Source: an uncultured Bacilli bacterium (lineage in GTDB: Bacteria > Bacillota_I > Bacilli_A > RF39 > UBA660). From it: DNA of 64,000 nt. Within the stretch, counting starts at the first letter, position 1. Each line of letters opens with the position of its first letter. This document shows, in pieces, positions 19,259-64,000 of this stretch. The position numbers were made by a program, and so were the translations under genes. A model generated the notes under the pieces. It did no database searches and was not told where the DNA came from. It saw only the letters and a program-made list of their open reading frames with translations. The stretch covers positions 3,187 to 67,186 of the forward strand of contig CALVRJ010000002.1 of the NCBI GenBank assembly GCA_944358545.1, written 5' to 3'.

Positions 19259-19728
19259 TAACATTCCCCTTTCAAAAACATCACAAATAAAATATGTAAA
19301 AAAAAACAATAAGAATAATAAAATCCTATTGTTTGTAAATAATCATAATTAAAATTTTCCTCCTCGCCCTAATTAGGGATTTATCAAACGACTAATTGCT
19401 AATTAGTTCCATAGGAATTTCACCTCAACTGTGGTTCTCACAGAGCCGTTCCGATTGATTGAGTCTATCGCTAAACGGAAGTATCATTATACTTTTAATT
19501 TGTCATCGCAAAATTAAGAGCAACTTAATTTTTATAACCAAATATTTATCGCTAACTATTTAATATAGATTACTGCGTATTTGTTAACGTGCTATAATTA
19601 AAAGAACGTATTTGATAAATGCTATTTGATTATCAAAGAACAAACTTATTTCTAAAAAAGAAACAAGTAAAAGGAACTTATCCTTCCAATTGTTTCCTAA
19701 ATAAAGAGTGATTTAACAGACACAAATT

Positions 19729-30642: not shown

Positions 30643-30954
30643 CTACTTTAAAATAATATCTAAAATTGGTTGTATAAAAACCATTATAATTCCCCCACCA
30701 ACAGACAAAAAGCCATCAGTTCTTTGTGTCGCATCATGACTACGAATTGAAATTCCAATTTGCATAACACCAAAACCTGTAAAAATAACACCTATTGCCC
30801 TAACAAAACTAAATATAAAGTTTGTCAAATTATCTACAACAGTAATCGGATCATCTGCTGCAAACACAGAACCTCTCGTCCAAAACATCAATGAAATAGC
30901 AAACGTAATAAACTTATATAAACTTAAAAATTTATTTTTTCTCACTTTTCTCAC
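30643..30954 (-). CDS. Small T4SS membrane protein (TcpD/Orf19-like)
   Basis: 103 aa, signal anchor plus 2 TM helices. Confidence 0.4.
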   Translation of the reverse strand: MRKVRKNKFLSLYKFITFAISLMFWTRGSVFAADDPITVVDNLTNFIFSFVRAIGVIFTGFGVMQIGISIRSHDATQRTDGFLSVGGGIIMVFIQPILDIILK

Positions 30955-32758
30955 CTTCTTTATTTCTATTTATATAATCATCAATTTCTTCAGATGAAAT
31001 CACTGTATAATTTGATTCATTATCCATGCTAATACTTTCATTTTCTTCGCTATTATTTTCATCAAAACTTATAACTATCGAAGCAACTTCATTGTCAGTT
31101 TTTCCATGCACATATATACCACCTTCTCCATCAGCAGAAAATTTAATATTAGGGTGCTTTAAAATATTATATTTATTATCTTTAACTGGTCTTTCGCCTC
31201 TTATAAAAAGCAAAGCATAATTATTATCAAGCATTCTTACCTCATCAGGTGTCATAAGTTCTCTGCCACTTAATTGATAATTAGTAGAATAATTACCAGA
31301 CCTGCCAGATGTCTTTCCATGGGTATCTAAATCTATTGTTTCTTTTCCAAGAAGTTCACTAATATATTTATGTGTAGATTGCTCATTCCCACCTAAATAA
31401 AGTAACTCATCACAATTACCAACAATAGATTCCCATTGCTTTTCAAATAAAGCTTTTAATTGAGCTAAATTCTGTAATATGATTGAAACTGACACATTCC
31501 TACTTCTCATAGTAGACAATATTTTTTCAAAATCATCTGGTAAACTTACATTGGCAAATTCATCCATTACAAAGTGAACATGCATAGATAAACTTCCACC
31601 ATATTTATTATCTGCTAAGAAAAAAAGTTGTTGGAACAGCTGAGTATATAAAATACTTACTAAAAAATTAAAAGAAGTATCATTATCTGGAATTAAAGCA
31701 AATAAAGCAACTTTCTTTTCACCTAGTGAAGATAAATCTAATTCATCTACCATAGTTAAAGAAGCCATACTTTCAAGATTAAATTTTTCAAGTCTACTTG
31801 CCAACGTTATTTGTATCGACTTCAACGTTTTACCAGAACCTGAACGATAATTTTTATAATATTTAACAGCTATATGATTCGGATATTCTTCTTCTAATTT
31901 TTCAAACAAAATATCTAACGGACTTAAATACATATCATCATCCTCTTTTACTTCACCTGCTCTAAGCATTTCAAGAACCATGCTAAAGTTTTGTTCATCT
32001 TCTGGAGCTTCATATTTTAGATAAAAAATTAATGCAAGTAATAACATGCTCGCTGCAGTATCCCAAAATGGATCATTAGTAGAAGAAGCTTTTGGAGTTG
32101 TAGCTTTAAACAAATTGGTAACTAATTTTTGAACATCATTATCATCTCTAAGATATACAAAAGGATTATAACAATGACTTTTATCCATATTTATTAAATC
32201 TAAAACCTTTACCTCATAACCAAATTTTTCTAAAAGATTTCCTGTATCTCTCAAAAGCTCACCTTTAGGATCTAAAACAACATATGAACAATTACATTGC
32301 ATTATATTAGGTTTACAATAAAATCTAGTTTTCCCTGCACCACTTCCGCCAATAACTAAAGTATTCAAATTTCTACGATGTATTCTTCCATCTAATCCAA
32401 TACAAACATTATTTGTTAATATTTTGTTATTCAAATCAGAATTTTGCTTATATTTTTTATTTATACTTCTCGCATTACCCCACTTTGCCGAACCATATTC
32501 TACCTTTCTTCTATAGTTCTTCTTTGATGACAAAATAATTCCATAGACAATTACATATACACAAAGACATACTGCAATCGTTTTAAAAGTGCTTTCACAC
32601 AACACTATTTTAAATGGATTACTTAAAATGTTTGAAAAATTATTTACTATTCCTACTAATCCATGATTAGATATAGGTGCGATTAATAATGCAAACCATA
32701 AAACAAATACAAACCCAAACAAGAATAACAAAAGCTGTTCTTTATAACTATTGTTCAT
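30932..32758 (-). CDS. Type IV coupling protein (VirD4/TraG/TcpA-like)
   Basis: N-terminal 2 TM helices; Walker A GGSGAGKT; Walker B VMDEFAN. Confidence 0.8.
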   Translation of the reverse strand: MNNSYKEQLLLFLFGFVFVLWFALLIAPISNHGLVGIVNNFSNILSNPFKIVLCESTFKTIAVCLCVYVIVYGIILSSKKNYRRKVEYGSAKWGNARSINKKYKQNSDLNNKILTNNVCIGLDGRIHRRNLNTLVIGGSGAGKTRFYCKPNIMQCNCSYVVLDPKGELLRDTGNLLEKFGYEVKVLDLINMDKSHCYNPFVYLRDDNDVQKLVTNLFKATTPKASSTNDPFWDTAASMLLLALIFYLKYEAPEDEQNFSMVLEMLRAGEVKEDDDMYLSPLDILFEKLEEEYPNHIAVKYYKNYRSGSGKTLKSIQITLASRLEKFNLESMASLTMVDELDLSSLGEKKVALFALIPDNDTSFNFLVSILYTQLFQQLFFLADNKYGGSLSMHVHFVMDEFANVSLPDDFEKILSTMRSRNVSVSIILQNLAQLKALFEKQWESIVGNCDELLYLGGNEQSTHKYISELLGKETIDLDTHGKTSGRSGNYSTNYQLSGRELMTPDEVRMLDNNYALLFIRGERPVKDNKYNILKHPNIKFSADGEGGIYVHGKTDNEVASIVISFDENNSEENESISMDNESNYTVISSEEIDDYINRNKEGEKSEKK

Positions 32759-33549: not shown

Positions 33550-34315
33550 GGCTAGATTTCTCCTTATCTAATAAATTTTCTTCTTTTTTATTTACAAGTG
33601 ATTCTTTTATTTTCCTTAATTTTTTTCTAACAGACTCTTTCTTTTTAGTACCAATTTCTGAGCTTTTTTTGTTCTTCAAGGAAGGTTCGGACTGATTTTT
33701 TTTTACTTTGTTTTCAGACTTGTTTTTAGATTGATTGGAAAATAAATCTTTCATTATTTCCTCATCACTTTTATCTTTGTTTTTATTTTTTGAAGGCTTT
33801 GACAATATATCATCCACAATATCATCATCTTTAGTTCTAACATTTTTACCATGAGTTTTCTTATTATAATCTTTAGGACTATCGTTTTCATGCTCTACAG
33901 TTGTCTCTTTATAAGTTGAAAATTTATATCTATTTATTATGCGATTAATTCTTGCAGCGTCTTCGGCCCTTACCATAAAATCAATCATTCCATCTTTGTC
34001 TTGATGTTTTTTATCAATTAATAAAGCATATAATATTCCATATCTTTTAGCAACTTGTTGAAAAAATTTTAATTCTTCTTTTCTTACCGAAAACACTTTT
34101 AAAGGTCTACCTGACTTTAGTAATTTTTCAAGTTTAGTTTTTCCTTTAGTCTGTTTCTTCCCACGATAAATAGCATAAAGTAAAGCAGCAATATTTTTTG
34201 CTGCCACTCCTGTTAATCTCAAAGTAACTTCTGTTCCTTGCAAGCTCATTCTTACAACCGATTCAGCTGCCTCTCCTGAATTCATTTCTATCAACTTCCT
34301 TTCTATTTTCTTCAT
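33539..34315 (-). CDS. Hypothetical protein with ~120-aa Lys-rich low-complexity tail (relaxosome accessory candidate, PcfB/DUF3801-like?)
   Basis: N-terminal ~130 aa globular, then a K/N/S-rich tail; immediately downstream of the relaxase. Confidence 0.35.
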   Translation of the reverse strand: MKKIERKLIEMNSGEAAESVVRMSLQGTEVTLRLTGVAAKNIAALLYAIYRGKKQTKGKTKLEKLLKSGRPLKVFSVRKEELKFFQQVAKRYGILYALLIDKKHQDKDGMIDFMVRAEDAARINRIINRYKFSTYKETTVEHENDSPKDYNKKTHGKNVRTKDDDIVDDILSKPSKNKNKDKSDEEIMKDLFSNQSKNKSENKVKKNQSEPSLKNKKSSEIGTKKKESVRKKLRKIKESLVNKKEENLLDKEKSSHER

Positions 34316-35576
34316 CTTGTTTTTTTATATTATTTTCAATCATTGATTTTCTTTTTTCAATTTCGTAAAGTAGCTTAACCTCTCTACGTAAATCATTTAT
34401 TTCTTTACTTAATCGACTATTTTCAAGTTGATATGTTACCAAATCTTCTTTACTAGTAGTCTTCTTTATCTTATAATTTAACTTCTCTTTTCTATCTAAT
34501 AAAGTATCTAGTTGCTTTTCTTTCTTTGTTTTAAATTTAATAAAATCTACATCAGTAATTATATTATTATTTCCAAGTAATTCCGTTTGTTTCATTAGAT
34601 TATCAAACTCTTTTAAATCAGATCTAATTTCTGGAATTAATTTATAATTTAAATTCTTTTTAGGAAACACTTCAAGCAAATAACAATAATACATAAATAA
34701 TCCGTAAATTCCTTTATTTCTGTTTTTCATTTTAAAAAAGTTTTCTACAGGTGTTCTCCCTTTTTTAATAAAATTTTCTTCAATTCTTTTTATTATATTT
34801 GCTTTACTATACTCATTACCAAATGTTCTAGAAACCCTAACTTTAAACCCGTCTAGCTTTCTTCTTATACTAAATATCTTATTAATGATAGTAACTTCAT
34901 ATCCCATTGAATTTAATTTATTTAAAAAGTCTTTATACGAATAAGAATTTAAAATAGCCGCATCAAGATCATCTTTTATCATTTGATAATAATCAGAAGA
35001 ATTAACATATTTTTTATAAAAGTTTTCATACTTAAATCCTGCTTTACTCTTCTTTTCAGTAAGTATACTTAATCCATATTCTGCACATAAATCGTCCGAA
35101 AGTCTTCTTAATCTAGCATAATTAATATTGTTATCATAATATTTTTTTCCATCTTTAAAGGAAACTGAATTAATAACAAAATGGTTATGAATGTGTTTAG
35201 TATTTTGGTGAGTACTAATAACAACTTCAAATCTATCTCCCCACATTTCGTTAGCAAGTTGAACACCTATTTTATGAGCAAGTTCCGGAGTAACTTCACC
35301 TTCCGCAAAAGACTGATAAGCATGGAATCCTAAAATACCGCCTTCTTTTTTATATGACTTTTTAGTTAAAATCATTTCCTTATAAGCCGTCTCAACAGAA
35401 CAATTAAGTGCAGAAACATAACATTCCTTTTCTGATTTTAAATCTATAAGTTCCTTATCATGCAAATTAAAAAACTCTTCACCATAAGAAGAGTTTCTCG
35501 TTTTTTCAATATTAGTTGTATATTCTATAACATGATCTAATCTTTTGTTAATTTTCCATATTTTTGTAGTAGCCAT
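34263..35576 (-). CDS. Conjugative relaxase (MobA/VirD2 Relaxase domain, MOBP-like)
   Basis: Histidine triad HQNTKHIHNHFVIN (H.D/N..H.H.H); N-terminal Tyr region; C-terminal coiled-coil. Confidence 0.65.
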   Translation of the reverse strand: MATTKIWKINKRLDHVIEYTTNIEKTRNSSYGEEFFNLHDKELIDLKSEKECYVSALNCSVETAYKEMILTKKSYKKEGGILGFHAYQSFAEGEVTPELAHKIGVQLANEMWGDRFEVVISTHQNTKHIHNHFVINSVSFKDGKKYYDNNINYARLRRLSDDLCAEYGLSILTEKKSKAGFKYENFYKKYVNSSDYYQMIKDDLDAAILNSYSYKDFLNKLNSMGYEVTIINKIFSIRRKLDGFKVRVSRTFGNEYSKANIIKRIEENFIKKGRTPVENFFKMKNRNKGIYGLFMYYCYLLEVFPKKNLNYKLIPEIRSDLKEFDNLMKQTELLGNNNIITDVDFIKFKTKKEKQLDTLLDRKEKLNYKIKKTTSKEDLVTYQLENSRLSKEINDLRREVKLLYEIEKRKSMIENNIKKQDEENRKEVDRNEFRRGS

Positions 35577-35608: not shown

Positions 35609-37078
35609 TTATTCATAAAAGAAAAAGTTTATTTCATCAGTACCAATAATGGAATCTATATTTTCTATTTCAGTTTCATTTATCAATACAGATTCATCAA
35701 TCTTAAAAGGAAGCCAAGAAGAATTCCATAATTCTTCTTTACAACCATAAACTTTTTTAGCTAATAAAGTAGAGTATTCTTTATCTCTGTTAAACTTTAA
35801 AGTTATACGCTGCAAACACATATTTATGTCATCTGTATTAGGTATTTCTTTAAATTTATTTCTAATACTTTCTATATAATAATCTATCTTATCAGTACAA
35901 AAGCTAAGTAACTTACTTAATATCCCTGAACAAGCCATATATGATTTAGGATTTCTAATTAATATATCGGTAGTTATACTGATTAATTGTTCCAAACATT
36001 CTGGTTCTTCTTCTAAATCTTTCAATTTTTTTTCATAGAAATTTACAAGCATTTTTTTTACAAAACTACTGTTTGGATTTTTCAAAGAAAACTGTCTTAT
36101 TTTTAATAACCAGTTTAAAATACTTTTATCTTCAACTATCAAAAACAAACTATTCAATTTATCTTGTTTAATAGAATTAGATATAACATCATCACAAACA
36201 AAAGTCTTTTTAGTATTAAATTTCATGTTTAATTCTGATAAAACTTCTGATAAAATTTTCAAAATCTTTTCTAAATCAGATTTACTATTTGAAAAAATTC
36301 TATAATCATCTCTAAATCGTATTATCTTATAATCATATATATCTTTTAATCTTTCAGATAATAACATATCTGCATATCCTAAAACTATTTCGGCAATAAA
36401 ATCCATTAATACACTTCCCTGAGGAATACCATTTGTTTGTCCATATGACATACATTGTATTCTCTCATCAATGATATTACCTATTATAGGGTCAAAGCGA
36501 TGGTCTTTCGCATATAATTTATCATGTATTGCCCACGAAATAGAATGAGTATATATAGAACTATAGCAATTTTCAATATCCGCATGAGCCATATATTTAT
36601 AATTCAAAGATAATTGTATACTTCGATTTTCAATGTTCTCTAACCAATTATCTATTATATTTGCAGTAGAACTTTTATCATTATCCGAATCAAAAGGAAT
36701 ACTATAACATTCAATATTACATAAATTTCTAAATTGTTTTAATCGTTCTGTTATAATTTTCCAATTATCAGGTTTTGTTATTTCATAAACTAAATCTATA
36801 TATAAAATTGGATGTATTATTTGCAGTTGTCGCCAAGTATATTTACCATCCTTGTTCGACATATAATTGTAATTAACATTCTCACATTTTTTAACTTGTT
36901 TTATTAAGTCTTTATCAAGTTTACATGAAAGATCATAAAAATATTTACATTCTGACATTTTTAATAAAGCACCAAAATCAAAATATTTTGGCAAATCAAT
37001 CGAACAATAATTAGAACCTTCTAGGAAAAAAAGCTTTGCTTGATTAGCCTCCATATCTATAACGCTTAATCTTTCCAT
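35609..37078 (-). CDS. Reverse transcriptase-like protein (Abi/unknown-group, putative defence RT) embedded in the mob operon
   Basis: RT palm motifs: A (MAHADIENCYSSI), B (GIPQGSVLMDFIAEIVL), C-like (IIRFRDDYRIF). No maturase/X or endonuclease domain and no canonical YADD. Confidence 0.6.
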   Translation of the reverse strand: MERLSVIDMEANQAKLFFLEGSNYCSIDLPKYFDFGALLKMSECKYFYDLSCKLDKDLIKQVKKCENVNYNYMSNKDGKYTWRQLQIIHPILYIDLVYEITKPDNWKIITERLKQFRNLCNIECYSIPFDSDNDKSSTANIIDNWLENIENRSIQLSLNYKYMAHADIENCYSSIYTHSISWAIHDKLYAKDHRFDPIIGNIIDERIQCMSYGQTNGIPQGSVLMDFIAEIVLGYADMLLSERLKDIYDYKIIRFRDDYRIFSNSKSDLEKILKILSEVLSELNMKFNTKKTFVCDDVISNSIKQDKLNSLFLIVEDKSILNWLLKIRQFSLKNPNSSFVKKMLVNFYEKKLKDLEEEPECLEQLISITTDILIRNPKSYMACSGILSKLLSFCTDKIDYYIESIRNKFKEIPNTDDINMCLQRITLKFNRDKEYSTLLAKKVYGCKEELWNSSWLPFKIDESVLINETEIENIDSIIGTDEINFFFYE

Positions 37079-42139: not shown

Positions 42140-43090
42140 CTATCTTTCCATCTGATGTCTTTCTTTTTGCTTTTTACAGTAATATTCAACTGCTTTAATT
42201 ACAAATTCCTCTTTTTCTTTTTCAGAAACCAAATTTTGTGGAAGTATATTTCTTAAACGATTCATATTGATTTTTAGTTTTTGAACTTGATTAGGTTTTT
42301 CAATATTTAAAATGTTTTCAATTGTTGAATAATCTAATTTACTTTTTTGACTTAATTCTTTTAACTGAATTGCCTGACTTAATGAAGGTGTAATCAAACT
42401 ACATTCTATAAAATCAGACAACATCGTTTGCTCTTCTTTTGATAAAAACGAAATTTCAACAGCCGGTCGTAAAGCTATACTCGGAGTATTACCTAAAACA
42501 TTATTATCAACAAATTTTAAAATGTCAGGTATAAGCTCTGTTAAACGAATATATCTTTGAACTTGTCTACCACTTTCACCAAATTCTTTACCTACAAGTT
42601 CAGCACTACTAAACTTATCGACCACTGGTCGCAAAGTTAAGATATCTTTTTTACCTTGATGCTTTATTGCCTCCAGTTTCATTTTATAAGCAAATGCTCT
42701 CTCGCTAGGGAGTATCTTTTCCCTTTGCATATTACTATCGACCATAATAATAGTTGCTTCATCATCGGTTAACTCCCGAATAATACACGGCATAGTTGTC
42801 TTTCCAGCAATTTCACTTGCTCTTTTTCTTCGATGACCAGAAATCATTTCATATCTACCGTTTTTTGGACGTATTATAGCAGGTACTAAAACACCACTTT
42901 CTCTTATACTATCAGCCATCTCAAATAATTCATCATTATCATTGACTTTAAATGGATGATTTTCAAATGAATCAATTTCAGATAAATTTACATCTACTAT
43001 CTTTTGAGCATTATTATATATGCGTTCTTCTTCCGTTGAAAATAAATCATCTAACTTGTTCAATCTTTCCGACAAATCGTTCTTTTTCAT
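42140..43090 (-). CDS. parB: ParB/KorB-like partition protein
   Basis: ParB box II ISGHRRKRA; overlaps parA. Confidence 0.7.
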   Translation of the reverse strand: MKKNDLSERLNKLDDLFSTEEERIYNNAQKIVDVNLSEIDSFENHPFKVNDNDELFEMADSIRESGVLVPAIIRPKNGRYEMISGHRRKRASEIAGKTTMPCIIRELTDDEATIIMVDSNMQREKILPSERAFAYKMKLEAIKHQGKKDILTLRPVVDKFSSAELVGKEFGESGRQVQRYIRLTELIPDILKFVDNNVLGNTPSIALRPAVEISFLSKEEQTMLSDFIECSLITPSLSQAIQLKELSQKSKLDYSTIENILNIEKPNQVQKLKINMNRLRNILPQNLVSEKEKEEFVIKAVEYYCKKQKERHQMER

Positions 43091-43868
43091 TGCTTATCAC
43101 CTCCAAAGCAAGAGAACAATATGCTTCAGATACCGGATTTTTTCTATCATAAGATAAAATACTTTTACCATAAATAGAAGATTCTGCGGTTTTTATAGCA
43201 ATTGGTATTTTTGATTTAAAAATATTTAATTGTGAACCGTATTCACTATGCAATAATTCATCTACGTTTTTAGATAAATTAGTTCTACGATCAAACAATG
43301 TCAATAAAACACCAGCAATTGATAAATTAGGATTTATTTGTCTTCTAACTTTATTGATAGTTTGTATTAATTGTGTCATTCCACGAAGTGCCAAATATTG
43401 ACTTTGAACAGGAATTATAACTTCATCTGAAGTAGCTAATGCATTAACAGTAATCATTCCCAACGATGGTGAACAATCAATCAAAATATAATCATATTTT
43501 TTCTTCAAATCATATATACATCTTTTTAATGTATACTCCCTACTCATGGCGTTAACTAAAGACATTTCCATAGCTGATAAATCCAAATTTGCGGGAATCA
43601 AATCTAGTCTTTCCTTATGATGTAATATAGCTTTATCAAAATATATAAGCTTATCATTCATAGATTGTTCCATTAAATCAGCTAAAGTTAAAGGTAATTC
43701 ATCCGAGTTATACCATCCCATATAAGTTGTTAAGTCTCCTTGAGGATCTGTATCAACTAATAAAACCTTTTTTCCAGCATTAACCAAAGCTACACCTAAA
43801 TTAAATACTGTTGTTGTTTTACCAACACCACCTTTCTGATTAACAACAGCAATAATTTTACCGTCCAT
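43047..43868 (-). CDS. parA: ParA/Soj family partition ATPase
   Basis: Deviant Walker A NQKGGVGKTT; 273 aa. Confidence 0.85.
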   Translation of the reverse strand: MDGKIIAVVNQKGGVGKTTTVFNLGVALVNAGKKVLLVDTDPQGDLTTYMGWYNSDELPLTLADLMEQSMNDKLIYFDKAILHHKERLDLIPANLDLSAMEMSLVNAMSREYTLKRCIYDLKKKYDYILIDCSPSLGMITVNALATSDEVIIPVQSQYLALRGMTQLIQTINKVRRQINPNLSIAGVLLTLFDRRTNLSKNVDELLHSEYGSQLNIFKSKIPIAIKTAESSIYGKSILSYDRKNPVSEAYCSLALEVISNEKERFVGKIEQVR

Positions 43869-48807: not shown

Positions 48808-49773
48808 TTACTTTATAAAAGTTGCCTTTATCAATTTAACCTTATTGGCAATCAAACTACCATCCAAATTATCCTCTTTAGTTAAATCAGTTGATAAATA
48901 TTTTTTGTTATCATCAGCAAAAACAGTTGCTACCGGTTTGTTTATTTCAGAGCCAAGTAAAATACTACCTATTAAATTAGCCCCAGATGAAATACCAACA
49001 CCTATACCTAACTCTTTAGAAACCCTTCTAGCCATTTGTATAGCATCTTCATCATCGATTAAAATAACCTTATCGATTAAATTTTTATCCACAAGTTTAG
49101 GTATAAAATCATCACCAATACCTTCAATTTTATGTGGACCAATTATTTTTCCACCAGAAATTAAAGGCATATTCTTTGGTTCAATCGCGCAAGTAATCAT
49201 CTCTTTAAAATTTTCCTTTAACCTCTTGCTAGTCCCAAGTAACGTTCCACCAGTTCCAACACCTGATACAAAACCACCTATTTCTTCAGAAACTTGCTTT
49301 AATATCTCCGCCCCAGTTGTTTCATAATGAGCAAGTATATTATTTTCGTTACTAAACTGATCAGGATAAAAAGCCCCATCTTTTAAAGCCATTTTTCTAG
49401 CTTCCTCAAGACACTTACTAAATCCTCCGTCCTCTCTACTTATTAAACTAACCTTCGCACCATATCCTTCCATTAATTTTCTTCTTTCAATTGATGCCCA
49501 GTCAGGCATAAAAATATGCACAGGATAACCATAATAACTTCCGAGTGCCGCAAGAGAAATACCTGTATTCCCACTTGTAGCTTCAACTATCTCCATTCCT
49601 TCTTTAAGTTTTCCACATTTTTTAGCTTCATTAATCATATAATAAGCAACCCGATCCTTAATACTTCCCGTTAAATTAAACATCTCAAGTTTCACATAAA
49701 CCGAATTCTTTTTGCCTAAATACTCATAGTCTATCTTTACCATCGGTGTATTTCCAATTACTTTATTTAACAT
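48808..49773 (-). CDS. cysK: Cysteine synthase / O-acetylserine sulfhydrylase family PLP enzyme
   Basis: PLP-lysine motif GSIKDRVA, GTGGT loop, ~320 aa. Confidence 0.8.
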   Translation of the reverse strand: MLNKVIGNTPMVKIDYEYLGKKNSVYVKLEMFNLTGSIKDRVAYYMINEAKKCGKLKEGMEIVEATSGNTGISLAALGSYYGYPVHIFMPDWASIERRKLMEGYGAKVSLISREDGGFSKCLEEARKMALKDGAFYPDQFSNENNILAHYETTGAEILKQVSEEIGGFVSGVGTGGTLLGTSKRLKENFKEMITCAIEPKNMPLISGGKIIGPHKIEGIGDDFIPKLVDKNLIDKVILIDDEDAIQMARRVSKELGIGVGISSGANLIGSILLGSEINKPVATVFADDNKKYLSTDLTKEDNLDGSLIANKVKLIKATFIK

Positions 49774-49956: not shown

Positions 49957-50835
49957 TTATCTTCGTCTTACCTTTATCGTATCATTTTCAGTTAGTTTAC
50001 CAATTAACAAAGATGAATTATCATCGTGATTTTTAAAATTCTCTTGAACCTTTTCTTCATCATAATTCGCGTAACAATACTTACAAAAATGCCGGCAAGA
50101 ATTATACACTCCAATATCTACCATTTCGGCACATCCACATTTTCTAGCTTGCCATTTTCTAAATTTTTTTCCAGTTAATTTATAAGCTATTTCCTTAGAA
50201 ACACAAACATCACCTGAAAAACCATATTTAACTAAATTATCGTCTTCATAACAAGTTTGAATACTCATTCCATTTTCTTTTGCAATTTTACTAAAATTTA
50301 TTGCAATCTTCTTTTTCATCTCATCAACAATATTCTTTAACCTTAAATACTTCATATTTTTCTGAACATTTTTATAATCATCAACAAAAGAAATAATAAT
50401 ATGTTTAACATAACCATTTAAAATTTCACATAAATGTTCAAAAGCTTTTATATGATAATCCAAAGTATACCTATCATTAATTAAAATTGGATCATATCTT
50501 ACATATAAATTATCTATTCCAACCAAATCCTTTAACTTCTTAATCGCCAAAATTATTTTTCCTTTCGAAATAACATTAGGTTCCACATCTTTCTTATAAG
50601 GAGTTAACGTTACTTGAAATATAATTGGCTTATCAATTTCCTTTAAACAGTTTAAAATTGGTATTGGATTTTTTGTACAAAACACAATTAAATCAACATC
50701 TTCAAAATAAATTCTACTTATAAGTTTTGGATAAAAGGGATTTCTTACATCTACAAATCCTTCCTTATACCTATTCATAAACCACTTACTATAAAAAGCT
50801 ACTACATCAGTTCGTCCACTAACATTTAAAATCAT
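49957..50835 (-). CDS. DUF1848 family protein with C-terminal Cys cluster
   Basis: CGCAEM...CRHFCKYCYAN Cys-rich C-terminus typical of DUF1848. Confidence 0.45.
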   Translation of the reverse strand: MILNVSGRTDVVAFYSKWFMNRYKEGFVDVRNPFYPKLISRIYFEDVDLIVFCTKNPIPILNCLKEIDKPIIFQVTLTPYKKDVEPNVISKGKIILAIKKLKDLVGIDNLYVRYDPILINDRYTLDYHIKAFEHLCEILNGYVKHIIISFVDDYKNVQKNMKYLRLKNIVDEMKKKIAINFSKIAKENGMSIQTCYEDDNLVKYGFSGDVCVSKEIAYKLTGKKFRKWQARKCGCAEMVDIGVYNSCRHFCKYCYANYDEEKVQENFKNHDDNSSLLIGKLTENDTIKVRRR

Positions 50836-50917
50836 AAACCCACATCCATATTATTATAACAAAATTAAAAAGTTGTCGAAAATACATTATCGACAACTAA
50901 TTTTATTCATAAACTAA

Positions 50918-51085
50918 TTATCCTGCATTTGAATATGTATCACAAGAACAACCATCACTCAAATCTACAGCACAACTGCCATCTGGGTCCATTGCATAAA
51001 TACTACAAGATAACTCATCATGATTACAATCAATTTCATTAAAAGAATCAGTTAAAACTTTATCTGCAGATAAAATCACTCTCAT
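50918..51085 (-). CDS. 55-aa Cys/Asp-rich peptide, translationally coupled to upstream rSAM-SPASM gene (candidate ranthipeptide/sactipeptide-like RiPP precursor)
   Basis: Not in the ORF track (under 60 aa). ATG at 51083-51085 overlaps the rSAM TGA stop (ATGA). RBS GAGGAGGTG 6 nt upstream. Sequence MRVILSADKVLTDSFNEIDCNHDELSCSIYAMDPDGSCAVDLSDGCSCDTYSNAG has 5 Cys, each near Asp. Confidence 0.45.
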   Translation of the reverse strand: MRVILSADKVLTDSFNEIDCNHDELSCSIYAMDPDGSCAVDLSDGCSCDTYSNAG

Positions 51086-52314
51086 TTTTTCACCTCCTCA
51101 AGTAAACTATTTATATATTTAATAGAATTATCAATATATGGAGGACATTCATTAATTTGATTTCTAACACATCCACCTTGACATACAGGTAAAAAAACAC
51201 AGTTAATACATTTATCAGATAAATTTTCATAAATATTCATTTCTGAATTTTTACCACAAGCAAAATCACTTATCTTTCCTATTTTTTTATCAAAATTCCA
51301 AAAATGATGTTCACAAATGTATATATTCCCAAATATATCCAAAAAAAATGACTGATTATTTTGAACACCACAAAATATATTTCTTCTTCTTGGTAACGAA
51401 AAATTTCGATATTTACTAATTTTTTTAAAAATTTGCTCATTTATATTTATCTGTTCTTCAGTAGTAAATGCAAACTTTTGCTTATTTGTATCATCTATTA
51501 TGTATGAATAATAACAAACAAAATTCTTATATTTTTTAAATCTTGTAAAAAAATATGAAAAAATTTCATCAGCCTCCATATAATTAACCTTCGATAAATT
51601 AATTCTGACATCAACTTTAATTTTGTTTTCAAGAATTTTTTCAATACACTGTATCAAATTGTCAAAAACATTCTCATTTGACATATAGTTCTTACGTTTA
51701 TCATGCCTCTCATACAAACCATCAAATGTAAGCTGTATCATTTTTACTTTCCAAACGCTCTTCAGTAAATTTATATTTATTTTATTTAATAACAAGCCAT
51801 TTGTTATTATAGTTGACGAAAAATCAACTTTATATTCTAATAATTTATTTGAAATATAATCAATCGCATCCATTTTCATTAATGGTTCTCCGCCAAACCA
51901 AATGATTTCAATTTTCCTATTTTTAGAGTTACTCAATATAAAATCAATAATCTTTTCATAGTTTTCTTGACTTGATACAGTTTTTTTAAATCCCATACTA
52001 GCCTGATAACAATAATAACATCTAGCATTACATTGTTGAGTTAAAGCAATAGTAAAAGTAACTTTATTTTTTGAAGTTTTAATATATTGTTCTCGAGATT
52101 TTAAAACATCATTAAGTTCATCAACATCATCATCTACCAATATTCCATTATCTTTTAAAATATCTAGTTCTTTTTTTTCTATTAAATTAAATTTCAAATT
52201 TTTCAATCTATTATAATAATCCATATCAAACTCAATCAAAGAACCCCGTAATGTATTCCATATTACTGCTTTTTTTGAATTATTTGCAGTATAATTAAAA
52301 ATAGACAATTTCAT
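51082..52314 (-). CDS. Radical SAM enzyme with SPASM domain and N-terminal RRE-like extension (peptide-modifying maturase candidate)
   Basis: CNARCYYC (CxxxCxxC) ~100 aa from the N-terminus; C-terminal CGV...CINCVFLPVCQGGCVRNQ auxiliary-cluster cysteines. Likely start is ATG 52314, 2 nt after the gltX stop (the track's 52350 lies inside gltX). Confidence 0.7.
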   Translation of the reverse strand: MKLSIFNYTANNSKKAVIWNTLRGSLIEFDMDYYNRLKNLKFNLIEKKELDILKDNGILVDDDVDELNDVLKSREQYIKTSKNKVTFTIALTQQCNARCYYCYQASMGFKKTVSSQENYEKIIDFILSNSKNRKIEIIWFGGEPLMKMDAIDYISNKLLEYKVDFSSTIITNGLLLNKININLLKSVWKVKMIQLTFDGLYERHDKRKNYMSNENVFDNLIQCIEKILENKIKVDVRINLSKVNYMEADEIFSYFFTRFKKYKNFVCYYSYIIDDTNKQKFAFTTEEQININEQIFKKISKYRNFSLPRRRNIFCGVQNNQSFFLDIFGNIYICEHHFWNFDKKIGKISDFACGKNSEMNIYENLSDKCINCVFLPVCQGGCVRNQINECPPYIDNSIKYINSLLEEVKK

Positions 52315-52315
52315 T

Positions 52316-53743
52316 TTATTTATCTGCACCCTCCAACTTTTTGATTCCAAATTTAATTCTTTTCAACGTTTCTTCTTTACCTAACAGATAAGCAATTTCC
52401 ACAGCACCACCAGGAGTTTTTTCTTTTCCAGATAATGCAACTCTAACAGGCCATAAAAATTGTCCTGTTTTAAAATTTATTTTATTTGGAACACTTAATA
52501 ATAAATCATGTAATTTTTCAAAAGAATTCCAATCCCTAAATTGGTTTAGCTGTTTATATGCAATAATTAATGATTGCTTAGCATTATCAAAATTTGTTTT
52601 CATCTTTTTATTTTCATATAAATCAATCATATAATCAGGTAAAGTCTCAAAAAAATCAATCATTTCTGGAATATCAGTTAATACTTCTGTCCGTTTTTGA
52701 ATTATTTTACTTAACTCATAAACATCAATATTTTTTTGAATCCATTTACTATAATATTTCTTTGCTAGTGACATAAAATGATTAATATCCATATTTCTAA
52801 TATAAACACCATTCATCCATTTTAATTTTTCTATATCAAAAATAGCAGGTGATTTTGATATTCCTTTTACATCAAAAATTTTTATTAATTCATTTAATGA
52901 ATATATTTCATTTTCACCTTTCGGCGACCAACCTAATAATACAATATAGTTTAAAATTGCTTCCGGCAAATACCCTTTATTTAAAAGATCGTTAAATGAT
53001 GCATCTCCATTTCTTTTACTTAATTTACTATGTTCATCTTTCATAACAGGAGCCAAATGTATATATTTTGGAATTTTCCATCCAAAATCATTATATATAA
53101 TATTATACTTAGGGGTAGACGACAAATATTCGTTACCTCTAATAACATAATTAATATGCATTAAATGATCATCAACTACATTAGCAAAATTATATGTTGG
53201 AAAACCATCAGATTTTAAAAGGACACCTTCATCTAATAGTTTTTTTTCGTTTTTTATTTTGCCATAAACCTCATCCTCAAATTCTACAAAACCATCATCA
53301 CTAATGGTTTGACGAATTACAGGCACCTCACCATCTTCTATTTTTTTCAAAACTTCTTTTTTGCTAAGTAATTTACATGGATCCTTTATATTTTGTGAAG
53401 TGCCATCATCATTTTTACAAAAACAATAATGAGCTCCGCCTAAATCAATCAATTTCTTTGCATATTTTTTATAAATTGACAATCTTTCTGACTGAACATA
53501 TGGACCGTATGGACCGCCTTTTTTTGGACCTTCATCATATTTAATATTCATAGCATCAAGAGATTCATAAATAACATCCATAGCACCGTTTACAAGTCTT
53601 TTTTGATCAGTATCCTCTATTCGTAATATAAAATTTCCATTATTGTGTCTTGCTATCAAATATGCATATAAAGCTGTTCTTAAATTTCCAATATGCATAT
53701 ATCCTGTAGGACTTGGAGCAAATCTTGTTCTTACTTTATCCAT
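52316..53743 (-). CDS. gltX: Glutamate--tRNA ligase
   Basis: HIGN (HMGN-type) and KLSKR (KMSKS) class I motifs, 475 aa. Confidence 0.9.
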   Translation of the reverse strand: MDKVRTRFAPSPTGYMHIGNLRTALYAYLIARHNNGNFILRIEDTDQKRLVNGAMDVIYESLDAMNIKYDEGPKKGGPYGPYVQSERLSIYKKYAKKLIDLGGAHYCFCKNDDGTSQNIKDPCKLLSKKEVLKKIEDGEVPVIRQTISDDGFVEFEDEVYGKIKNEKKLLDEGVLLKSDGFPTYNFANVVDDHLMHINYVIRGNEYLSSTPKYNIIYNDFGWKIPKYIHLAPVMKDEHSKLSKRNGDASFNDLLNKGYLPEAILNYIVLLGWSPKGENEIYSLNELIKIFDVKGISKSPAIFDIEKLKWMNGVYIRNMDINHFMSLAKKYYSKWIQKNIDVYELSKIIQKRTEVLTDIPEMIDFFETLPDYMIDLYENKKMKTNFDNAKQSLIIAYKQLNQFRDWNSFEKLHDLLLSVPNKINFKTGQFLWPVRVALSGKEKTPGGAVEIAYLLGKEETLKRIKFGIKKLEGADK

Positions 53744-63483: not shown

Positions 63484-64000
63484 CTATAACGGCTTCTTTT
63501 TCATATCGGAATATTTTCGAGGATATTTTAAGCTTATGTCTCCTACTCTTTTTATTAAAACTAAATTTCTTATTCCAGCTTCCTTTGGAAGTTCAAAACA
63601 AATAACCTTTTCTAACTTAGAACTTAAAACATCTAAAACTCTATTACTAACTGAAATATCATCTTGTCCCTTCATCGCCACAAAAAACTTATTAATTTTA
63701 ACCATTGGCATACTATACTCCATTAAAATAGAAAGTTTTGCGACCGCCCTAGCTGTAACTAAATCAAACATCTCTCTGTTATCTTTTGCATAATCTTCTG
63801 CTCTAGCATGAACTAAATTAACATCGTTAAGTCCAAGCTCAAAAACAACTTCCTTTAGAAAATTAATTCTTTTATTTAAAGCATCAACTAAAGTAAGCTT
63901 AATATTAGGATAAAATATTTTTATAACAATTCCAGGAAAACCAGCACCCGTCCCAATATCACACATACTTTCAATTTTTGCAAAATCAATCGCTTTAACT
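63484..64000 (-). CDS. rsmG: 16S rRNA m7G527 methyltransferase RsmG (GidB); 3' portion, N-terminus beyond window end
   Basis: SAM motif DIGTGAGFPGI; frame open to the window edge. Confidence 0.7.
   Translation of the reverse strand, partial: VKAIDFAKIESMCDIGTGAGFPGIVIKIFYPNIKLTLVDALNKRINFLKEVVFELGLNDVNLVHARAEDYAKDNREMFDLVTARAVAKLSILMEYSMPMVKINKFFVAMKGQDDISVSNRVLDVLSSKLEKVICFELPKEAGIRNLVLIKRVGDISLKYPRKYSDMKKKPL

Follow-up and report, generated by a model that had tools for sequence, protein, structure and literature searches.

A gltX-associated radical SAM/SPASM enzyme and its Cys/Asp-rich peptide: a candidate thioether-forming RiPP cassette of uncultured gut Bacilli

What could be made by a radical S-adenosylmethionine (rSAM) enzyme whose gene directly follows that of a housekeeping tRNA synthetase, and by the 55-codon open reading frame (ORF) that overlaps its end? 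This question is raised by a 64,000-nucleotide stretch of DNA from an uncultured Bacilli bacterium (contig CALVRJ010000002.1 of assembly GCA_944358545.1; the whole stretch is hereafter the window). From the letters of this stretch alone, an earlier analysis (hereafter the sequence-only reading) had proposed a candidate undescribed locus for a ribosomally synthesized peptide with post-translational modifications (RiPP). This proposal stands, because neither the rSAM enzyme nor the peptide is claimed by a curated family of NCBIfam or Pfam and no description of the cassette was found in the searchable literature, a scope from which genome-mining papers in subscription journals are excluded. The cassette is a real, uncurated and narrowly distributed RiPP family of the sacti/ranthipeptide type, a class that is itself known. 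We put at roughly 0.6 the probability that it is a two-gene RiPP system in which the rSAM enzyme modifies the peptide and cross-links it by thioethers.

All genes of the region lie on the minus strand (Table 1), and gltX, ahead of which lies a promoter-like site (extended -10), is the first gene of the transcription unit that bears the cassette. Its TAA stop (52318-52316) is separated by a single nucleotide from the ATG of the rSAM gene (52314-52312), so the close succession of the two genes is borne out; the upper limit of 52350 first given for the rSAM gene corresponds to an in-frame TTG within gltX. Since homologues of 404-422 amino acids (aa) all start with MKLS..., the ATG at 52314 is taken as the start, which gives a 410-aa product. 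The TGA of this gene (51084-51082) and the ATG of the peptide gene (51085-51083) overlap as ATGA. This overlap had been read correctly, the earlier translation of the 55-codon ORF matches the DNA exactly, and the ribosome binding site (RBS) GAGGAGGTG claimed for it is present at 51099-51091. Beyond the peptide gene, a terminator-like hairpin (RNA fold z-score -2.7) was found by folding only; a consensus terminator scanner reported no terminator, because the loop exceeds 8 nt. The unit in the window is therefore gltX-rSAM-peptide, and the following DUF1848 gene lies outside it.

Is the small ORF a gene? When 5.8 billion proteins are searched with the rSAM enzyme, its orthologues stand out as a close group (P0001-P0016) of 41-100% identity; a gap in identity, which extends down to about 34%, separates them from the next matches. 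Contigs were examined for nine lineages (the window, L001, L002, L005, L008, L010, L012, L094 and L098). In all nine, whose rSAMs are 42-78% identical, an ORF of 36-58 codons lies directly 3' of the rSAM gene, either overlapping it or 1-46 nt away, and an RBS of the AGGAGGTG/AGGAG type stands ahead of this ORF in all six other loci inspected. Positions C27, Y30, G36, C38, D44, G45, C46, C48 and D49 are invariant among 13 peptide sequences (alignment A4). Furthermore, the ratio of nonsynonymous to synonymous divergence (dN/dS, Nei-Gojobori) is 0.16 between the window and L001 and 0.09 between L002 and L094, with dS of 0.8-1.2. Conservation in orthologous loci, this low dN/dS and the kept RBS establish that the small ORF is a real gene, more than a chance frame, and that the peptide is under purifying selection. 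Its conservation beside orthologous rSAM genes had been set beforehand as one of two points on which the RiPP proposal could fall.

The peptide family is very small: it forms 12 clusters at 90% identity among the 5.8 billion proteins, and when 1.84 billion representatives are scanned exhaustively with HMMER, 6 reach E <= 1e-10. On 93 public contigs, gene calling has produced this very 55-aa sequence, without a name. The ORF was thus rightly said to be unannotated as far as its function goes, and wrongly as far as gene calling goes.

The cysteines of the peptide stand in a regular register. In the window, all five of them are followed by Asp or Tyr at +3 (C20NHD, C27SIY, C38AVD, C46SCD and C48DTY). 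The sequence-only reading had noticed CxxD motifs, which are indeed present, and counted two of them; there are three (C20, C38 and C46), joined by two CxxY (C27 and C48). Among 14 family members, D, E or Y occupies Cys+3 for 60 of the 64 cysteines (94%), against 8-48% at other offsets, and the permutation p of this register lies between 0.0006 and 0.04 for the individual peptides. The core is strongly acidic and contains neither Lys nor Arg. Natural substitutions at the acceptor position are confined to D, Y, F and H, as in P0132 (CTIY, against Cx[VI]D in other members), P0131 (CDSH) and P0275 (CGHF). The motif is thus Cx2[D/Y] and not just a cysteine with Asp at its side, and a register of this kind hints at three to five small thioether rings; Cys-to-Asp chemistry is what we infer from these residues.

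The enzyme is of a kind that could form such rings. The CxxxCxxC motif and the SPASM cysteines reported earlier are both there, the former as C95, C99 and C102. The seven SPASM cysteines are invariant in 15 orthologues as well as in an alignment of 70 sequences, and C334 falls within GNIYIC, which corresponds to the G-x4-C of the SPASM motif. An eighth cysteine is not conserved in the SPASM region, as is also the case in CteB, SuiB and TigE (PMC10878394). This seven-cysteine layout leaves open one iron of auxiliary cluster I, which binds the substrate cysteine in CteB, PapB and Tte1186 (PMC10177961, PMC10878394). As the Pfam SPASM profile matches neither the whole protein nor the isolated SPASM fragment, the SPASM assignment rests on the motif and on the structural match. 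An AlphaFold2 (AF2) model built from the 70-sequence alignment has a mean predicted local distance difference test score (pLDDT) of 90.7. Its best Foldseek match is CteB (5WHY/5WGG; TM about 0.69 over 445 columns), along the whole chain including the RiPP recognition element (RRE); TigE, anSME and SuiB come next. CteB is also the best match by sequence in the PDB (E = 4e-18), where SkfB is found as well. In the model, residues 7-79 form three strands (7-11, 15-20 and 25-30) followed by three helices (31-38, 47-55 and 66-79) with a pLDDT of about 96. Three strands and three helices are the RRE topology of CteB, TigE and SuiB (PMC10878394). The RRE-like region that had been recognised at the N-terminus is thus present as a fold, with a length of about 80 aa rather than 100. 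Altogether, the protein combines the CX3CX2C motif, a seven-cysteine SPASM region, an N-terminal RRE and an adjacent peptide, as RRE-bearing maturases of the sacti/ranthipeptide type do.

Among NCBIfam models, the enzyme scores best with CefB (169.5 bits), TIGR04463 (149.2), geopeptide (134), Clo7bot (131) and PapB (114.8), all far below the curated cut-offs. Two enzyme types were considered and rejected. The first, an anaerobic sulfatase maturase, had been named in advance as the classification that would undo the RiPP proposal: TIGR03942 gives 63.3 bits for a cut-off of 349, an RRE is present, the best matches are peptide maturases, the closest solved structure is CteB, and no sulfatase gene occurs in any of the loci inspected. 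The second is a cyclopropylglycine synthase of the TvgB/TigE type. In these enzymes, the Tyr of a GYW motif ligates auxiliary cluster I and the precursors contain TVGG/TIGSVS repeats (PMC10878394); there is no GYW in the 410 aa of the rSAM enzyme and there are no such repeats in the peptide.

From these elements, the following mechanism may be proposed. The 55-aa peptide would be made from a strong RBS, translationally coupled to the enzyme gene, and its N-terminus, M-[ERK]-[VIEL]-[LI]-[IFK], would dock as a beta-strand on the RRE. Next, the enzyme would cross-link the acidic C-terminal core intramolecularly, by thioethers. Auxiliary cluster I probably receives a donor cysteine at its open iron, while the 5'-deoxyadenosyl radical would take a hydrogen from the residue at +3 of this cysteine. 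Three to five rings of four residues are predicted (C20-D23, C27-Y30, C38-D41, C46-D49 and C48-Y51), the acceptors being Asp, Tyr, Phe, His and occasionally Glu. The cassette itself is carried by housekeeping operons, that of gltX in the window and that of a short rel in other lineages.

Which carbon would be attacked is a separate matter. Bonds to the beta-carbon, as in ranthipeptides, are favoured over bonds to the alpha-carbon because the beta-methylene of Asp, Tyr, Phe or His would give a stabilised C-beta radical, Glu being the exception. The specific topology, from position i to the C-beta of i+3, nevertheless remains a tentative proposal that we hold with clearly less confidence than thioether formation. 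If the sulfur were instead linked to the alpha-carbon of the +3 residue (sactionine), the same cassette would produce a sactipeptide. Sactisynthases share the architecture of RRE, rSAM and SPASM domains, the sactisynthase SkfB is among the PDB matches, and attack on an alpha-carbon ignores the side chain, so that it suits Asp, Tyr, Phe and His equally. For the same reason, the +3 position should drift freely, yet it is constrained to D, E or Y after 60 of the 64 cysteines, and the nearest enzymes by sequence and structure, CteB and PapB, form non-alpha thioethers. Known sactipeptides are typically nested hairpins, not i/i+3 rings, which also counts against sactionine links here. We regard them as unlikely.

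Several points weigh against thioether cross-linking in general. Two of the four invariant cysteines have Tyr, not Asp, at the acceptor position, and to our knowledge Tyr and Phe acceptors have no citable precedent among ranthipeptides. The Cx2[D/Y] register is unlike the CX3D of PapB, and the enzyme stays under the cut-off of every curated thioether-synthase model (114.8 against 340 bits for PapB). Rings that overlap, as C46-D49 and C48-Y51 would, are difficult on steric grounds. The RRE is not picked up by Pfam sequence profiles when the isolated N-terminal fragment is scanned, and neither a leader cleavage site nor a protease or exporter was found for the cassette. Lastly, the chemistry cannot be read off from the fold and the SPASM motifs: TigE, the second-best structural match, has the same seven-cysteine layout and is a cyclopropylglycine synthase (PMC10878394).

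This last point opens the way to a non-thioether modification, in which case the cysteines of the mature product would form disulfides or bind metal. It could be an aromatic C-C or C-O cross-link at Tyr30 or Tyr51, a cyclopropyl group at Val/Ile40, or epimerisation. Maturases with the same fold do perform such reactions, as SuiB forms a Lys-Trp C-C link and TigE makes cyclopropylglycine (PMC10878394). Moreover, Tyr30, Tyr51 and V/I at position 40 are conserved, and a DxxDG-type acidic core with four cysteines could bind metal. Against this, the GYW motif and the TVGG/TIGSVS repeats are absent from enzyme and peptide, cyclophane and streptide-type models score 49-57 bits only, and chemistry that requires a phenol is ruled out because Tyr30 and Tyr51 can be replaced by Phe or His. 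Such a modification would leave the strict Cys(+3) register without an explanation. It seems quite improbable to us, and thioether cross-linking is retained in what follows.

Known systems share features with the cassette, which can nevertheless be set apart from each of them. The closest in architecture are the SCIFF systems of Clostridia, CteB/CteA and Tte1186/Tte1186a, whose enzymes likewise join an RRE, an rSAM domain and a seven-cysteine SPASM region. They also share with the cassette a short Cys-rich precursor, the lack of a dedicated protease or exporter, and housekeeping neighbours; the location of SCIFF among housekeeping genes has been taken as an argument against an antibiotic role (PMC8326336). 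The window enzyme is only about 20% identical to those of SCIFF systems, and TIGR03974, the SCIFF maturase model (cut-off 425 bits) that the sequence-only reading had singled out as a check, does not figure among its 25 best families, which score down to 48 bits. The peptide, for its part, is acidic, has no similarity to SCIFF and lies downstream, not upstream, of its enzyme. SCIFF has a consensus of six cysteines in about 45 aa, against 3-5 cysteines in the peptides of the cassette; its acceptor is Thr (C-gamma), with a single proven link; and it is near-universal in Clostridia, whereas the cassette family is tiny and patchy. The downstream position of the precursor had been called unusual, which cannot be maintained, as both orders occur in neighbouring rSAM families.

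PapB, the freyrasin synthase of Paenibacillus polymyxa, corresponds to the best-scoring NCBIfam model with an experimentally characterised member (NF047865), whose match begins at residue 86 of the window enzyme. It forms Cys-to-Asp C-beta thioethers at CX3D motifs, the substrate binding to the open site of auxiliary cluster I (PMC10177961). An rSAM/SPASM enzyme acting on repeated Cys...Asp motifs with formation of several small rings is thus common to PapB and to the mechanism proposed above. The differences lie in the spacing, which here is Cx2 (94% at +3 against 8% at +4), in the acceptors, which here include Tyr, Phe and His, and in the number of motifs (six in PapA, three to five here). 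In the same way, QhpD introduces intrapeptide Cys-Asp (C-beta) and Cys-Glu (C-gamma) thioethers into the small polypeptide QhpC (PMC8326336), which is rich in Cys and acidic residues and stays with the cell instead of acting as an antibiotic. TIGR03906 gives the window enzyme 50.5 bits for a cut-off of 453, the window peptide has no Trp that could yield the cysteine tryptophylquinone (CTQ) cofactor, and no qhpA or qhpB dehydrogenase gene occurs near the cassette in the loci inspected.

For the i/i+3 spacing itself, the streptococcal pair NxxcB/NxxcA provides a precedent, as it forms an i/i+3 Cys-Asn beta-thioether beside a carbonyl-bearing side chain (PMC8326336). The donor-acceptor distance and the C-beta thioether are those proposed for the cassette; the polarity is reversed, with the acceptor Asn upstream of its donor Cys, only one link is formed, and shp/rgg quorum sensing controls the system. 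No close sequence relationship between NxxcB and the window enzyme was seen.

The two top-scoring profiles, CefB (NF038107, "Cys-every-fifth") and TIGR04463 ("rSAM_vs_C_rich"), match the enzyme over nearly its full length, N-terminal domain included, and both are defined by their pairing with very Cys-rich short peptides. The scores reach at most a third of the cut-offs (600 and 525, respectively) and the window peptide matches no model. No publication on these uncharacterised families was found in the searchable literature. Small Cys/Asp-rich ORFs also lie beside rSAM/SPASM genes of about 30% identity on contigs of metagenome-assembled genomes (MAGs) assigned to Eubacteriales, Bacilli and Mollicutes (L017, 7242-7349; L036, 7218-7352; L055, 7286-7375; L083, 5810-5968). 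They contain many CxxD/Y motifs, one of them with CSCDGY; MKVIERNILNEQKNNSVIAMCDCDDSCQADCFCWD and ...CSCDGYCTRLFDCTFDND are examples. Neither these enzymes nor their small ORFs match a curated family above its cut-off, which suggests a wider uncurated superfamily.

The genomic context tells how the cassette is likely to be expressed and how it is distributed. In a first arrangement (A: the window, L001, L002-4 and L094-97), the order is gltX-rSAM-peptide, and gltX is separated from the rSAM gene by 1-6 nt. In a second one (B: L005-7/L014, L008-9 and L098), a 478-491-aa protein with HD, RelA_SpoT and TGS domains precedes the rSAM gene, the peptide gene and then gltX; in L010, the order is tyrS...rSAM-peptide-gltX. 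The spacer of about 100 nt before gltX in arrangement B holds a hairpin with a T-run followed by a TTGACA...TGnTAnAAT promoter, so the cassette is transcribed there with rel, not with gltX. Co-transcription with gltX, as claimed from the window, thus holds for arrangement A and not for B. Hairpins with T-runs are also found 3' of the peptide gene in L008, L010 and L098.

The short Rel-type gene lies at 3531-4967 in L005, 3539-5014 in L008, where it overlaps the rSAM gene, and 3301-4743 in L098. Full-length Rel proteins have about 700-750 aa, and no ACT or RRM match by Pfam appears in the gene tables for this one. In the L002/L094 lineage, the peptide gene is directly followed by a gene for tRNA-Glu(CUC) that has a promoter of its own (L002, 6410-6485; L094, 6192-6267), which leaves the cassette sandwiched between gltX and tRNA-Glu. 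This neighbourhood may be a coincidence or a hint of a link with Glu-tRNA.

Overall, the cassette adjoins gltX in 8 of the 9 lineages. A tblastn search with the glutamyl-tRNA synthetase (GluRS) finds gltX in 19 loci, every one of the orthologous family; it is out of view at L012/L013 only, where the contigs end early. By contrast, gltX occurs within 6 kb in none of 79 loci of the broader rSAM family, a control that speaks for a specific adjacency. The GluRS proteins of cassette loci are 63-85% identical, so that these genomes are related and common descent can account for a large part of the synteny, and one rearrangement suffices to explain arrangements A and B. Sibling genomes have the slot without the cassette: L103 reads LytR-metS-gltX-ADI-OTC-CK, with metS in place of the rel-rSAM-peptide block, where L005 reads LytR-rel-rSAM-peptide-gltX-ADI-OTC-CK, and L101, another sibling, also lacks the cassette. 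The cassette is therefore accessory. Functional coupling to gltX was considered and is weakened by the terminator and promoter of arrangement B, by the relatedness of the GluRS proteins and by the siblings devoid of the cassette.

Taxonomic placement is based on the nearest named GluRS proteins, which come from a "Bacilli bacterium" MAG (67%) and from Erysipelotrichaceae, Longicatena, Amedibacillus and Merdibacter (about 60%), and the samples with cassette loci are mostly gut metagenomes. A scan of GTDB genomes, which is unsuitable for estimating prevalence, gave at least one orthologue among the matches listed (L014, the same as L005), labelled "uncultured Firmicutes bacterium". In its distribution, the cassette is thus like an accessory trait within a small clade of uncultured Bacilli from the gut that are related to Erysipelotrichaceae.

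In the lineages examined, the cassette has no conserved neighbour that would be a protease, an exporter or a regulator. This fact, together with the constant location among genes of translation and of the stringent response (gltX, rel, tyrS, trpS, metS, tRNA-Glu), would be accommodated if the peptide were not a substrate at all, and was instead an independent small acidic metal-binding protein while the rSAM enzyme acted on GluRS, Rel or tRNA. Such a scheme fits poorly with the peptide and rSAM genes being always adjacent, often overlapping, and gained or lost together, and with an enzyme that has a leader-binding RRE and belongs to the radiation of RiPP maturases. The gltX gene of arrangement B, with its own promoter behind a terminator, and that of the sibling genomes, kept without the cassette, speak against it as well. 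We consider it highly improbable.

With the peptide taken as the substrate, one may speculate, at long odds, that the product is not a secreted antibiotic and is instead an intracellular, cross-linked and very acidic mini-protein, with its expression deliberately tied to the machinery of translation and of the stringent response. If so, its place in the gltX operon, in the short-rel operon or beside tRNA-Glu(CUC) would be explained. It would act on this machinery, as a regulator or mimic binding GluRS or Rel, or in metal homeostasis as a Zn/Fe buffer, and would, in the manner of SCIFF, be a "physiological RiPP" whose partner in the cell is defined.

Two neighbours in the window were examined as possible members of the module and rejected. 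The DUF1848 gene does follow the peptide gene, as had been reported; it is separated from it by the hairpin with its U-run and by a promoter-like site, and is absent from 7 of the 9 lineages, being found near the cassette in the window and L001 only. In L001 (7546-8430), it is split into ORFs of 201 and 55 aa, possibly by a frameshift or as a pseudogene, and lies 0.6 kb from the peptide gene, beyond a ygjV-like gene. A 496-aa protein with Ig-like and Peptidase_C39_2 domains, encoded 4 kb downstream of the peptide gene, was considered as leader protease; it is specific to the window and near the cassette in no other lineage. Two genes downstream of the peptide gene, a PALP-family gene resembles cysteine synthase (cysK/cysM). 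In B. subtilis, gltX is in an operon with cysE-cysS, and the neighbourhood in the window may therefore be a remnant of a gltX-cys cluster.

Farther away, 7 kb from the cassette, the minus strand carries a conjugative element. Besides the features of Table 1, it encodes a sigma-70 region-4 protein, a CHAP peptidase, a VirB4/TraG-type ATPase, DUF3801 and DUF3991/Toprim proteins, a sortase and a SpaA-fold surface protein. On the other side of gltX, rsmG/gidB and a gene for a 639-aa ParB/Noc-like protein suggest that the window lies near the chromosomal origin. The 64 kb contain no rRNA or tRNA gene.

Table 1. Position of the cassette, of its parts and of other features in the window.
Feature	Coordinates	Strand	Evidence or remark
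Promoter-like site, extended -10	53811-53782	minus	ahead of gltX
gltX (glutamate--tRNA ligase)	52316-53743	minus	TIGR00464, 456.6 bits (cut-off 290); Pfam tRNA-synt_1c and Anticodon_2
Radical SAM/SPASM peptide maturase, 410 aa	51082-52314	minus	Pfam Radical_SAM, 61 bits; Fer4_12
RRE-like winged-helix domain, about aa 1-82	52069-52314	minus	AF2 model, match to CteB
CX3CX2C radical-SAM cluster motif CNARCYYC (C95, C99, C102)	52009-52032	minus	invariant in the 70-sequence alignment
SPASM cysteines C315-x18-C334, C369xxC372x5C378x3C382, C390	51145-51372	minus	invariant
Shine-Dalgarno GAGGAGGTG	51091-51099	minus	5 nt ahead of the peptide ATG; read from the sequence
Putative precursor peptide gene, 55 aa and stop	50918-51085	minus	conserved in all orthologous loci
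Putative leader, about aa 1-19	51029-51085	minus	
Acidic core, aa 20-55, five Cx2[D/Y] motifs	50921-51028	minus	
Terminator-like hairpin, 9-bp stem and 10-nt loop, then UUUUUAAUUUU	50861-50898	minus	20 nt past the peptide stop
DUF1848 gene	49957-50835	minus	Pfam, 291 bits
PALP-family gene (cysK/cysM-like)	48808-49773	minus	
Gene with Ig-like and Peptidase_C39_2 domains, 496 aa	45222-46712	minus	
Conjugative element	19400-44000	minus	
ParB/ParA	42140-43868		conjugative element
Group-II-intron-type reverse transcriptase	35609-37078		conjugative element
MobA/VirD2 relaxase	34263-35576		conjugative element
Type IV secretion system coupling protein	30932-32758		conjugative element
pemK RNA motif	19409-19490		conjugative element
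ParB/Noc-like protein, 639 aa	61449-63368	minus	
rsmG/gidB	63484-63966	minus	

The significance of the cassette is modest, as uncharacterised rSAM-RiPP cassettes with Cys-rich peptides are known by thousands, and new biology is not required to account for it. Should the proposed chemistry be confirmed, the ranthipeptide/sactipeptide class would gain a new family of precursors and, from Cys to +3 with Asp or aromatic acceptors, a new register of rings, both from uncultured low-GC gut Bacilli, which are missing from most RiPP surveys. The enzyme could then serve as a catalyst for very small, contiguous or overlapping thioether rings, a use for which PapB is already exploited (PMC12373016). Furthermore, the recurrence of the cassette within gltX or rel operons, with neither exporter nor protease, parallels the question raised by SCIFF, namely what such a peptide does for its producer, and would offer a second, smaller system in which to address it.

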